Origin: an uncultured Elusimicrobium sp.
GTDB lineage: Bacteria > Elusimicrobiota > Elusimicrobia > Elusimicrobiales > Elusimicrobiaceae
Direction: 5' to 3'
Assembly: GCA_902787065.1 (NCBI GenBank)
Contig: CADAFA010000001.1
Coordinates: forward strand, 1 to 58,511
Length of the DNA stretch: 58,511 nucleotides
Shown: one piece after another, positions 14,268 through 15,935 of the stretch
How positions within the stretch are numbered: the stretch's first letter is position 1
Layout of the letters: every line of letters begins with the position of its first letter
Notes under the pieces: generated by a model
Told to the model about the DNA's origin: nothing
Databases searched by the model: none
What the model saw: the letters and a program-made list of their open reading frames with translations, nothing else
Program-made: the position numbers and the translations under genes

Positions 14268-15044
14268 ATGGTAAATTTTCAAAAAGTTAAACACATGGGT
14301 ATTGTTACAATACCGTCCTTATTTACGATCGGCAATATCACTTGCGGATTTTTCTCCATACTTGCTTCTGTGGAAGGGGATTTTTATTTTGCAGGTATTT
14401 TGATTTTCGTCGCCATGCTTTTTGATGCTTTTGACGGGCGCGTTGCAAGGTTATTACATGCTGAATCTTCGTTTGGTGTAGAGATGGATTCTTTGGCAGA
14501 CTTAATTTCCTTTTGCGCAGCACCGGCCTTTTTGATTTATTACATTGCTTTAAGGGAAACATCTTTTGGTGCCCCTATTTCTTTTATCTTCATGCTTTTT
14601 GGTGCTATTCGTTTGGCTAAATTTAACGTGTTGGCAAATTCCGGTAAAGGGTCAAAAAAATACTTTTCCGGTTTACCTACACCGGCAGCGGCAGCAGTTT
14701 TAGTTTCCCTTGCCTTATCTTATGATGCCCTTTCTTTAGAAGAAGTCAGGAGGGTTTTACCGATAGCAAAAGTTTATATTCCCTACATTTTCAGTGCTGT
14801 ATCTTTGATAACTTTAGGGCTTGCGCTTTTGATGGTTTCAAATATTCCTTATGCTGCGTTTAAAAATAAACAAACGGGACAAAACAGGAAAGTTACACTT
14901 GGCAAATTTTTGTTTTTAGCGATTTTAATTATTTTATTCATCAAGTATCCGCAAGACATTATTTTTATAGTTTTCGGCCTATATGCTTTAATAGGTTTGA
15001 TAGTTGCTCTTGTACGTAAATTTATCAATTTAAACACAAAATAA
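14268..15044 (+). CDS. pssA: CDP-diacylglycerol--serine O-phosphatidyltransferase
   Basis: CDP-alcohol phosphatidyltransferase motif DAFDGRVARLLHAESSFGVEMDSLADLI. Polytopic membrane protein. Adjacent to psd. Confidence 0.85.
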   Translation: MVNFQKVKHMGIVTIPSLFTIGNITCGFFSILASVEGDFYFAGILIFVAMLFDAFDGRVARLLHAESSFGVEMDSLADLISFCAAPAFLIYYIALRETSFGAPISFIFMLFGAIRLAKFNVLANSGKGSKKYFSGLPTPAAAAVLVSLALSYDALSLEEVRRVLPIAKVYIPYIFSAVSLITLGLALLMVSNIPYAAFKNKQTGQNRKVTLGKFLFLAILIILFIKYPQDIIFIVFGLYALIGLIVALVRKFINLNTK

Positions 15045-15055
15045 ACTTTAACTAC

Positions 15056-15139
15056 GGGCGGGTGGCGGAATTGGCAGACGCGTACGGCTCAGGACCGTAT
15101 GTCCTAACGGACTTAGGGGTTCAAATCCCCTCTCGCCCA
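15056..15139 (+). tRNA. tRNA-Leu (anticodon CAG)
   Basis: Acceptor GGGCGGG/CTCGCCC (one G-U), D-arm GCGGAATTGGCAGACGC, anticodon arm TACGG-CTCAGGA-CCGTA, long variable arm, T-arm AGGGG-TTCAAAT-CCCCT. Starts 11 nt after the pssA stop with no own promoter seen. Confidence 0.9.
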
Positions 15140-15149
15140 AAATAAAAAT

Positions 15150-15176
15150 ACACCCTTTCGGGTGTTTTTTTATTTT
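15150..15176 (+). terminator. Rho-independent terminator (copy 1 of a duplicated 30-nt unit)
   Basis: ACACCC-TTTC-GGGTGT followed by TTTTTTATTTT. Confidence 0.7.
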
Positions 15177-15334
15177 CGGCTGCGCAATGCCAACTGCTTG
15201 GCATTGCGGGGGATTTGAAGGGCGGAGCGATGTTTTTGTTTGAAGCACGAAGTGCTGAAAGGCAAAAACCGCGAGCCCAGGGGTGGAGGAAAATTCCGTC
15301 AGGAATTTTACCGTAACCCAAATCCCCTCTTAAT
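15177..15334 (+). ncRNA. Candidate structured small RNA of unknown class
   Basis: Markedly more GC-rich than its surroundings. 11-bp hairpin 15183-15193/15198-15208. Closing helix GGGGATTTG 15209-15217 / CAAATCCCC 15319-15327. Inner helices GTTTTTG/CAAAAAC (15232-38/15263-69), AGCAC/GTGCT (15244-48/15252-56) and AAAATTCC/GGAATTTT (15290-97/15302-09). Followed by its own terminator copy. Confidence 0.35.
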
Positions 15335-15362
15335 ACACCCTTTCGGGTGTTTTTTTATTTTT
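15335..15362 (+). terminator. Rho-independent terminator (copy 2, identical to 15150-15176)
   Basis: ACACCC-TTTC-GGGTGT-TTTTTTATTTTT. Preceded by CAAATCCCCTCT, which duplicates the tRNA-Leu(CAG) T-arm 3' side. Confidence 0.6.
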
Positions 15363-15380
15363 CTGAGAGTAGTGTGACAA

Positions 15381-15878
15381 CTAAATTTTTATTATACAAC
15401 CGCTATGATAACCTGTGGGAAAATTATTTTTGATTGTATTATTACATATTTTACGACAAATTTTTTCTTTAATTTCTCTTGATAAAGTACTATTGCCAAA
15501 GGGCCCATTATAGTAATAACAAAAAAATTCACCTAAAAGTATTTGTTCCCATTCCTCATAAGCATAACCTATACGTATATCAGTTTTATTGTTACGAAGA
15601 ATTACGTGGCTATTACTAATATCATAATATGTAATATCTGCCATAATAGGCAAATCTATATCTAATAAATCTATTCTGTCAGCATATTCCCCTTTCACTA
15701 AATAATAACGTTGTTGTGCTTCAGCAATATTTTTAATTATACTCATTTGTGTTTTTGTTTTTACCAAGTTTACTACATAATAATACTGCGGCAGTGCAAT
15801 TGCCGCTAAAATACCGATAATTAAAACTACTACTAATAATTCTAACAATGTAAAACCTTTCTTATTATTTTTTATCAT
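15381..15878 (-). CDS. Prepilin-type N-terminal cleavage/methylation-domain protein (pilin-like paralog)
   Basis: MIKNNKKG/FTLLELLVVVLIIGILAAIALPQY with Gly-1, Phe+1, Glu+5. AGGAG 11 nt upstream of the ATG at 15878. The ORF-track GTG at 15890 abuts the RBS. Confidence 0.8.
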   Translation of the reverse strand: MIKNNKKGFTLLELLVVVLIIGILAAIALPQYYYVVNLVKTKTQMSIIKNIAEAQQRYYLVKGEYADRIDLLDIDLPIMADITYYDISNSHVILRNNKTDIRIGYAYEEWEQILLGEFFCYYYNGPFGNSTLSREIKEKICRKICNNTIKNNFPTGYHSGCIIKI

Positions 15879-15935
15879 ACTTATAAACACTCCTAAATTG
15901 ATTCATACAGCGTTTTTAATTTAACTGTATACTAT

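Follow-up and report, generated by a model that had tools for sequence, protein, structure and literature searches.

Protein-less structured modules behind tRNA genes of Elusimicrobiota and Candidate Phyla Radiation bacteria share the architecture of Escherichia coli tRNA-linked repeats

What occupies the space between two copies of a tRNA 3′ end, folds strongly, and holds no recognizable protein gene? The question arises just behind tRNA-Leu(CAG) in DNA of an uncultured Elusimicrobium sp. (GenBank assembly GCA_902787065.1, contig CADAFA010000001.1, positions 1 to 58,511 of the forward strand); this whole stretch of 58,511 nucleotides is referred to below as the window. The initial annotation, made from the letters of the window, described a GC-rich element between duplicated copies of the tRNA 3′ fragment and its terminator and considered three readings: an unannotated structured RNA, the att-like scar of a deleted integrated element, or a small non-autonomous mobile element. 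The element, here called the module, is a member of a large, widespread, and uncatalogued family of protein-less units of about 150 nt that lie behind tRNA genes in Elusimicrobiota and in the Candidate Phyla Radiation (CPR)/Patescibacteria. Three features go beyond the initial annotation, namely the status of the module as part of a family, arms that are specific to the tRNA beside each copy, and the architecture of the E. coli RtT repeats. No published description of the Elusimicrobia/CPR family was found in the literature.

Units of the family share one order: a segment X, a variable segment that repeats the acceptor 3′ strand in inverted form, a hairpin P1, an 11-nt inverted copy of T-loop and T-stem, a core, and X again. 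X runs from C56 of the tRNA, in the T-loop, through the 3′ end, with or without trailer and terminator, and the conserved core of about 100 nt, a three-way junction, is closed by the inverted and direct copies of X. In the window, the module starts 38 nt past tRNA-Leu(CAG) on the same strand, and the stretch that it copies in both orientations extends from the T-loop to the 3′ end of that tRNA (15120-15139). Compared genomes are given G-numbers, with G000 the source genome, and loci L-numbers. The features of the locus are as follows.

15056-15139, + strand: tRNA-Leu(CAG), the host gene (ARAGORN; 52.4 bits with the Rfam tRNA model)
15122-15133, + strand: DR1, first copy of the direct repeat, CAAATCCCCTCT, inside the working tRNA, from T-loop C56 into the acceptor 3′ strand
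15135-15180, + strand: terminator 1 within a longer palindrome; stem 15150-15165, then a T tract
15183-15208, + strand: hairpin P1, with 11 bp in the stem and two A-U pairs closing a CUGC loop
15209-15219, + strand: anti-T segment, GGGGATTTGAA, 5′ strand of the closing helix
15220-15278, + strand: first arm of the core, with P2, a GGA/GA internal loop, P3, and the tip
15220-15223 / 15275-15278, + strand: P2, a pairing in the first arm, next to the GGA/GA internal loop
15227-15229 / 15270-15272 and 15232-15241 / 15260-15269, + strand: P3, which holds two invariant tandem U.G pairs
15244-15256, + strand: tip of the first arm, AGCAC-GAA-GUGCU
15281-15319, + strand: second arm of the core, with P4 and P5
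15281-15284 / 15316-15319, + strand: P4
15288-15297 / 15302-15312, + strand: P5, with a GUCA loop
15319-15330, + strand: DR2, second copy of the direct repeat, CAAATCCCCTCT, 3′ strand of the closing helix
15332-15361, + strand: terminator 2, identical to the 30-nt unit of terminator 1

The duplications and helices that had been drawn by eye are all present where the initial annotation placed them. The 12-nt block (15122-15133 and 15319-15330) and the 30-nt terminator unit (15147-15176 and 15332-15361) are each 100% identical between their copies, and both copies of the latter are predicted as + strand terminators. The 11-bp hairpin (15183-15193/15198-15208) is perfect, the closing helix pairs GGGGATTTG (15209-15217) with CAAATCCCC (15319-15327), which is the duplicated tRNA fragment, and the minimum free energy (MFE) structure contains both proposed arms, GTTTTTGTTT/AGGCAAAAAC with the AGCAC-GAA-GTGCT tip and GGAAAATTCC-GTCA-GGAATTTTACC. 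The higher GC content that had been noted amounts to 52.9% over 15177-15331 versus 35.3% for the whole window. The MFE of 15177-15362 is -83.2 kcal/mol versus -54.1 ± 4.2 kcal/mol for dinucleotide shuffles (z = -7.0), and none of 200 shuffles folds as stably. A protein gene had been thought not to fit the region, and the three small open reading frames (ORFs) that span it have no match in Pfam.

Two details of the window copy concern its ends. The palindrome at terminator 1 has arms of 21 nt each that are 90% complementary (15135-15155/15160-15180), so the stem reaches into the acceptor 3′ strand of the tRNA, and CGGC at 15177-15180 is a weak remnant of the anti-acceptor segment. At DR2, the remaining acceptor strand and the trailer (CGCCCAAAATAAA) have been deleted with a loss of 13 nt; orthologous copies in other species retain CAAATCCCCTCTCGCCCA there.

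The arms follow the neighboring tRNA throughout the family. In the window, the anti-T segment GGGGATTTGAA is the exact reverse complement of 15120-15130, that is, of the T-loop of its own tRNA plus four bases of the 3′ T-stem. Measured against its own tRNA, the segment is perfect in 45 of 95 copies and has one mismatch in another 31, whereas perfect matches make up 2.3% of the controls, for which tRNAs of other isoacceptor types were used. The length of the direct repeat peaks at 18-21 nt (control median 7), and an anti-acceptor segment with at most one mismatch is found in 26% of copies versus 4.8% of controls. Family-wide, the direct repeat starts at C56 and spans 12 to about 75 nt; the window copy keeps a 12-nt repeat and the 30-nt terminator, and the copy at L030 has a perfect 26/26-nt repeat that includes the encoded CCA. 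Cleaner copies in other genera carry a recognizable acceptor mimic. Along the 5′ strand, the order is acceptor strand, P1, and T-stem strand, and the P1 consensus CAACUGCUUG is kept across the phylum Elusimicrobiota.

An unusual arrangement lies behind tRNA-Asn of the source genome (G000:C21:2531-2860), where a full unit is followed by a second P1 hairpin with its loop split by an 18-nt insert, TGAGGGCACAGCGCCCCG, and then by 22 nt that repeat the 3′ end of tRNA-Asn in inverted orientation, CTCCTCGGACAGGACTCTAACC, with one mismatch. The P1 loop is the exact end point of three arrays (those behind Leu-CAA and Asn in the source genome and the one at L013), and it may therefore be a breakpoint hotspot.

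The initial annotation had proposed a search for more copies in the same genome and its relatives, and the 155-nt unit recurs seven more times in the source assembly (1.08 Mb, 76% complete), which has eight full and two partial modules among 36 tRNAs, each just 3′ of a different tRNA. Full units lie on the same strand behind Leu-CAG, Val-GAC, Leu-CAA, Asp, Asn, and Ser-UGA, and also behind Ser-GGA, where a different insert separates the unit from the tRNA. The partial copies, behind Met (C61) and Ser-CGA (C65), hold the hairpin and antisense segment only. No module lies behind the tmRNA gene of this genome. The two solo forms (G000:C61:1794-1880 at tRNA-Met and G000:C65:97-178 at tRNA-Ser(CGA)) comprise terminator, P1, and anti-T without core or second repeat, and they are probably residues of recombination between long repeats. 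About 700 nt downstream of tRNA-Met lies a gene for a Xer-like recombinase; it recurs in the same gene order in G011 and G019, and this looks like conserved gene order and not a functional link.

Beyond the source genome, a first covariance model built from seven copies finds 1-14 copies per genome in 20 of the 24 species of the genus and finds the module also in a second family of the order. A broader model finds it in 118 of 301 Elusimicrobiota genomes. The module is nearly universal in the family to which the window belongs; in distant families its occurrence is patchy, with high scores, and in the remaining orders of the class it is absent. The close relatives G001, G010, and G015 have no copies. 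The exact core motif also occurs in metagenome-assembled genomes (MAGs) labeled Candidatus Saccharibacteria, Paceibacterota, Adlerbacteria, and Patescibacteria, and covariance model R2 finds full units in these CPR MAGs (98-133 bits) directly behind tRNAs. A 46-nt core stretch, GGAGCGATGTTTTTGTTTGAGCGAAGCGAAAGGCAAAAACCGCGAG, is letter-identical between the Leu-CAA copy of the source genome and one Saccharibacteria copy. A tRNA on the same strand lies just upstream in all 38 loci first fetched and in 95 of 106 copies overall, with the remainder at contig ends. The family is represented behind 24 isoacceptors, among which the class II tRNAs Leu, Ser, and Tyr are over-represented.

In some CPR copies, at L147, L171, L188, and L203 (Saccharibacteria, Patescibacteria, and Adlerbacteria MAGs), the segments that bracket the core in inverted and direct orientation match just the last 4-5 nt of the tRNA (e.g., GTGG...CCAC), and P1 is fused to the tRNA trailer, so the entry point differs by lineage, at the T-loop or at the extreme 3′ end. 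Units of 106-145 bits were also seen on short rumen or gut contigs labeled Alphaproteobacteria, Spirochaetes, and Muribaculaceae (L164, L165, and L174); these contigs are probably mis-binned Elusimicrobia, or the units may have been acquired by horizontal transfer. Searches of mobile replicons returned nothing, with no blastn match of the unit among 50,697 phage records and 72,556 plasmids and no core pattern in the viral contigs of IMG/VR.

The interior of the module is conserved as a structure. Over 58 copies, aligned by fitting to the covariance model, standard pairs fill 95.6% of cells versus 73.8% in shuffles, 41 of 49 pairs have changed on both sides, and the covariation score is 0.461 versus 0.142 in shuffles and at most 0.098 with partners slid by 1-3 columns. 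Twenty compensatory pairs were already present in the original seven-sequence MAFFT alignment. All eight stem pairs scored in P1 covary, and in seven both partners have changed; 98.6% of P1 cells pair, and the closing helix pairs in 92.4% of cells family-wide. P2 appears as GGGC/GCCC, GCCC/GGGC, and GGCC/GGCC, and P4 as GGGU/ACCC, GGCU/AGCC, GGUU/AACC, and CCC/GGG. Two P3 pairs are U.G in 96 and 97 of 99 copies, and the C-GAA-G triloop is invariant. Covariation among homologs was one of the checks suggested for the structured-RNA reading, and the structural part of that reading is borne out.

The strand that folds can be told from the same pairs. G.U outnumbers A.C by 274 to 32, or by 81 to 32 when the two invariant tandem U.G pairs are set aside, and the tRNA-sense strand is therefore the folding strand. 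This bias points to an RNA made in the direction of the tRNA; the conserved tandem U.G pairs and the three-way-junction core likewise suggest RNA rather than DNA, and the folded molecule could also be a + strand DNA. The module resembles no catalogued RNA family: at gathering thresholds, only tRNAs match Rfam 15 in the window, and at E ≤ 10 over 15140-15362 the matches reach about 8-19 bits, far below family thresholds and mostly over the terminators alone. RNAI gives 24.8 bits (threshold 47), mostly across the tRNA and terminator 1.

Direct repeats that begin in a T-loop are typical of classical integrase att sites, and this is the observation behind the reading of the module as a plain att scar, left at the tRNA-Leu 3′ end by a deleted island or prophage. 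Such a scar would not be expected to contain the tRNA tail in inverted orientation, no integrase remains at the locus, and the interior is a multi-copy, conserved, covarying family that stands behind 24 isoacceptors in two phyla, which refutes the reading and leaves it next to no probability. An island or prophage remnant, or a cis-mobilizable element (CIME), was rejected on the conserved interior, on ORFs without Pfam matches, and on neighbors in the window that are pssA and a pilin gene. The latter, downstream of the module at 15381-15890 (- strand), encodes a prepilin-type protein (N_methyl motif, E = 6.4e-10). The DNA distal to the Leu-CAG array varies between species, with different pilin-like or other genes there.

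How the module came to lie in the tRNA gene is indicated by empty sites. The Leu-CAG site is empty in the distant congeners at L058-L066, which lack the hairpin and anti-T as well, so the whole unit, including the hairpin and antisense segment, is an insertion. For Gly-GCC, G012 has a filled site, tRNA...CGCCCGCT / element / CGATTGCTTTCGCCCGCT-CCA-TTTAAAAGCC(terminator), and the source genome has an empty one, ...CGCCCGCT-CCA-TTTAGAAGC(terminator). The native CCA and trailer follow DR2, and DR1, which now completes the tRNA, therefore belongs to the element. From the letters of this one site pair, the arrangement reads as an integrase-type insertion topology at the T-loop. A target-site duplication made by staggered nicks is disfavored, since the native CCA and terminator stand after DR2 and not after DR1.

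Once present, units accumulate and are lost in arrays. Eight related species carry 1-3 tandem units at the Leu-CAG site, with four left-module types in a constant order (a, b, c, d) and three core types; the window unit combines left module a with a type-A core. Most of this pattern follows if an ancestral array of four units lost parts by recombination between repeated segments, and the second unit of G011 (left module d with a type-A core) is the sole Leu-CAG case that needs an extra exchange. A tree of the cores, based on 97 usable columns and with many weak forks, places the window core with the Val-GAC and Ser-UGA cores. Core lineages specific to particular tRNAs were rejected, as the tree requires 26 changes of tRNA label versus 29 in shuffles, with a possible minimum of 11.

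Other small elements were observed in the same places. At L041 (G041:C16) and L049 (G019:C26), both downstream of tRNA-Leu(CAG), the anti-T segment is interrupted at GGGGATTT^ by a second element, about 370 nt long and without an ORF, which carries the terminal inverted repeats AGGCTTGGCAAG...CTTGCCAAGCCT. The insertion point is the same in two species and in two different units, as if the element targets the T-loop-like ATTTGAA. The insert between tRNA-Ser(GGA) and its module (G000:C20:10250-10495) belongs to a different repeat family, with a core ...CGGATACCTCCGCNCTACGNGCGNGTTAACTCGGTATACC... and flanking A/T-rich inverted repeats; the family also occurs at L010, L063, and L066, behind Leu-CAA in G018 and behind Leu-CAG in G006 and G046, and may be a second kind of tRNA-adjacent mini-element. 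At G000:C56:4604-4696, ARAGORN calls a long (93-nt) tRNA-Arg(GCG) with an atypical T-loop region, TTCAAATTGTA, which may be a false call, an intron-bearing gene, or a disrupted tRNA.

Resident units are conserved more strongly than the genes beside them. The 80-nt left block of the window copy, from the trailer through the terminator and P1 to anti-T, has 96-99% identity to its counterparts in five other species, where the adjoining pssA is 82-85% identical, and type-C cores are 94-99% identical among four species, where pssA is 82-86% identical across species. Copies that are kept better than coding DNA point towards a function at the level of the host, and the module could accordingly be a host-serving structured RNA whose tRNA-tail copies are functional parts and not insertion footprints. 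It might act as a small RNA that binds a protein or ligand, like RrA/B/F of E. coli, or as an antisense-plus-decoy switch, with the core determining if the antisense arm stays locked to DR2 or invades the pre-tRNA and blocks its maturation.

The 46-nt core identity between the Leu-CAA and Saccharibacteria copies, the invariant tandem U.G pairs and triloop, and the retention of the closing helix even where the rest of DR2 has decayed all fit a host-serving RNA, and the E. coli repeats rrA/B/F are processed small RNAs (PMC8144298). Against it stand copy numbers that rise to at least 14 per 1.2-1.5-Mb genome, with tandem arrays, partial units, and truncated repeats; the empty close relatives and the patchiness across the phylum; the lack of tRNA-specific core lineages; and the lack of a conserved neighboring gene. 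A host-serving RNA is thus possible and rather doubtful.

No ORF lies in or beside the unit, neighboring genes are unrelated from site to site, and co-occurrence within the genus identifies no tracking enzyme. Two Xer-like recombinases are encoded in every genome of the genus examined, non-carriers included, and many carriers have no further one, so that no extra Phage_integrase protein tracks the family. RVT_1 is found in 6 of 31 congeners, is absent from the source genome and from the copy-rich G011 (14 copies), G004, and G017, and does not track the family; Y1_Tnp, found in 11 of the 31 and absent from many carriers, including G011, G018, and G002, does not track it either. The latter distribution led to the rejection of repetitive extragenic palindromes (REP/REPIN) mobilized by a Y1 enzyme (RAYT/TnpA). 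A miniature inverted-repeat transposable element (MITE) moved by a DDE transposase was rejected because the inverted ends change with the neighboring tRNA and the direct repeats range from 12 to about 75 nt, always from C56. An IS110-type element was rejected on the absence of an ORF in or beside the unit and on the hairpin plus three-way junction, without a genome-wide search for IS110 recombinases.

A retroelement resembling a short interspersed nuclear element (SINE) would make both orientations of the tail copy understandable. Here, reverse transcription of a co-transcript of tRNA and module, with priming either at the target or through snap-back of the terminated pre-tRNA 3′ end, would yield inverted and direct copies of the tRNA tail, and the constraint observed at the RNA level fits this. 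The repeat corresponds to the last 18-21 nt or so of the tRNA, and retroviral primer-binding sites have the same length. The inverted copy also begins right after the terminator U tract, where a snapped-back 3′ end would start copying. The scarcity of RVT_1, which is missing from nearly complete genomes with many copies such as G011, G004, and G017, speaks against this, and the target-primed form was rejected on that distribution. In addition, P1 interrupts the inverted copy, which simple copying leaves unexplained, and poly-A or other marks of retrotransposition are lacking, so that a retroelement is very improbable.

The ubiquity of the Xer pair bears on a further explanation, in which the module is a guided or folded-single-strand substrate for recombination. 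The helix formed by the copies of X would mimic the duplex of a tRNA 3′ end, and Xer, or the core itself, would insert the unit at T-loop position 55/56; in a variant, the two arms would pair with the two target strands, as the loops of IS110 bridge RNAs do. Such a substrate would account for arms that are target-specific and represent both strands of the same 11-21 nt, for a junction fixed at C56, for a strand-specific fold, and for an integrase-type topology without an integrase, and the Xer pair is the one candidate universally present. The same pair is shared by non-carriers, however, and no recombinase tracks the family. Moreover, the T-arm is not dif-like, circles or fresh insertions have left no sign, the arms pair with each other over their full length without open guide loops, and a conservative crossover offers no means of re-templating the arms to suit a new tRNA; some CPR arms are 4-5 nt long and match the last bases of the tRNA alone. 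This mechanism is accordingly judged unlikely.

The explanation preferred here, with a probability of roughly 55%, is that the module is a structured passenger of tRNA genes, similar to the tRNA-linked repeats (TLRs) of E. coli, that was inserted at the T-loop and spread by host recombination. It matches most closely the small non-autonomous mobile element among the three initial readings, and the multiple copies, their position behind tRNAs, the arrays, the T-loop insertion topology, and the occurrence in two phyla fit that reading best. The module would thus sit in the tRNA gene as a T-loop insertion, as the Gly-GCC site pair suggests and as seems to apply elsewhere. It would supply the 3′ end that completes the tRNA, with the native 3′ end and trailer pushed downstream. 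No promoter is predicted on the + strand over 14900-15500, and the module is flanked by two identical + strand terminators in a dual-terminator layout; from these we infer read-through transcription, which would start at the tRNA-Leu promoter, pass terminator 1, and end at terminator 2, in the manner demonstrated for rrB, a TLR of E. coli.

In the RNA of such a passenger, the 5′ strand (anti-acceptor, P1, and anti-T) and the 3′ strand X would rebuild a tRNA-like acceptor/T helix, and the order along the 5′ strand would then correspond to tRNA topology, with P1 in place of the tRNA body and the core in place of the T-loop. The tRNA-like ends may serve RNA processing and stability, and the helix between inverted and direct X would occupy the antisense segment and so spare the neighboring tRNA from unfolding. 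Spread and persistence would rely on the tRNA sequence and X as recombination homology and on host enzymes, with no enzyme of the element's own, and arrays would shrink by recombination between the repeated segments.

Several points weigh against this passenger reading. The topology rests on a single filled/empty pair that is unpolarized, and precise loss looks the same as gain; at Leu-CAG, no fresh insertion was seen among the compared species. Conservation stronger than that of coding DNA is not predicted for a purely selfish, decaying passenger. A simple crossover at the T-loop would yield chimeric tRNAs and leaves unexplained how the inverted copy comes to match new tRNAs. Finally, the window copy has a truncated DR2 and just CGGC as anti-acceptor segment, and tRNA-like ends are therefore not the whole story here.

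Whichever mechanism applies, the modules fill non-coding space in very small genomes, and their tRNA-fragment repeats are easily mistaken for the att sites of islands. They merit entry in RNA family catalogues.

Among known systems, integrative elements with T-loop att sites, and the CIMEs that derive from them and lack an integrase, have repeats that run from T-loop to 3′ end, complete the tRNA while displacing its native end, and accrete in tandem at one tRNA. In contrast to these, the module measures about 170 nt, has no integrase and none that tracks it, has a conserved covarying interior with an inverted copy of the att segment, and occurs as one family at 24 or more isoacceptors with matching arms at each. 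In the CTX-phage attP(+) site, in other integrative mobile elements exploiting Xer (IMEX), and in integron attC sites, one strand folds and rebuilds a duplex like the chromosomal target. The module resembles them in its complementary segments within one strand, its strand-specific fold, and the absence of its own recombinase, and differs from CTX attP(+) and attC in its target, the tRNA T-arm and not dif or attI; no link to Xer or IntI emerges, as non-carriers have Xer as well.

Guide RNAs carried by mobile elements, such as the bridge RNAs of IS110 and the omega RNAs of IS200/IS605, are likewise structured RNAs of about 150 nt with short segments that match a target or flank. No recombinase or TnpB lies adjacent to the module, unlike in those systems, and its arms pair fully with each other; IS200/IS605 further differ in that the Y1 transposase is present in 11 of the 31 congeners only.

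The closest parallel is found in the TLRs, which were known in E. coli as early as 1978 (Egan & Landy 1978, Rudd 1999, and Stenum et al. 2021; PMC8144298). [quoted passage not shown] At tyrT/tyrV, each 178-nt unit consists of GGGGAAGGAT-GAGAA...core...-AATCCTTCCCCCACCACCA, that is, antisense T-stem, core, and tRNA tail. The Rfam family RF00391 (RtT) models the closing helix of tyrT/V and has four matches of 133-137 bits in E. coli. The K-12 RtT units behind proK, serX, and lysT/valT carry tRNA-specific antisense segments (GAGGAT at proK, GGGGGGAT at serX), and the K-12 RtT loci include long repeats with terminators and partial terminal units. A mobilome preprint that mentions rttR was uninformative on mechanism.

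Both kinds of unit, of about 130-180 nt, lie directly 3′ of a tRNA on the same strand (in E. coli also of 5S), and both end by repeating the last 18-19 nt of the upstream gene, which corresponds to the 18-21-nt peak found here. Both have a closing helix made of the tail copy and a tRNA-specific antisense T-stem (GGGGAAGGAT/ATCCTTCCCC at E. coli tyrT), and both show tandem arrays, long repeats that bear terminators, partial end units, dual terminators, and C-GAA-G triloops. The module family differs in its extra P1 and anti-acceptor segment, in an antisense that covers the whole T-loop (11 nt), in a repeat that begins at C56 and not at about A58 as in E. coli, in its two-armed three-way-junction core, and in its hosts, Elusimicrobiota and CPR. 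RF00391 has no match in the window at its 45-bit gathering threshold, nor on 15000-15420 at E ≤ 10, and model R2 scores at most 5.7 bits at the E. coli RtT locus. With the same architecture and no homology detectable in either direction, the module is therefore a variant of the TLR kind and not a member of RtT.

A more speculative proposal, improbable but covering both families, is that the core is the working part of a protein-less, target-programmed mobile element, whose arms would read both strands of a tRNA 3′ end, which would insert at 55/56, and whose new arms would be copied from the tail by a host enzyme or by its own chemistry, with the E. coli TLRs being of the same kind. If true, this would explain a 45-year-old puzzle of E. 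coli TLRs. As a second family without detectable homology, found in Elusimicrobiota and CPR, the modules make the TLR architecture a general phenomenon and not an oddity of E. coli, and they sharpen the question of how a protein-less unit of 150 nt gains an inverted and a direct copy of the tail of each new tRNA. Because the architecture is the same in E. coli, experiments on that question are feasible in a laboratory strain.

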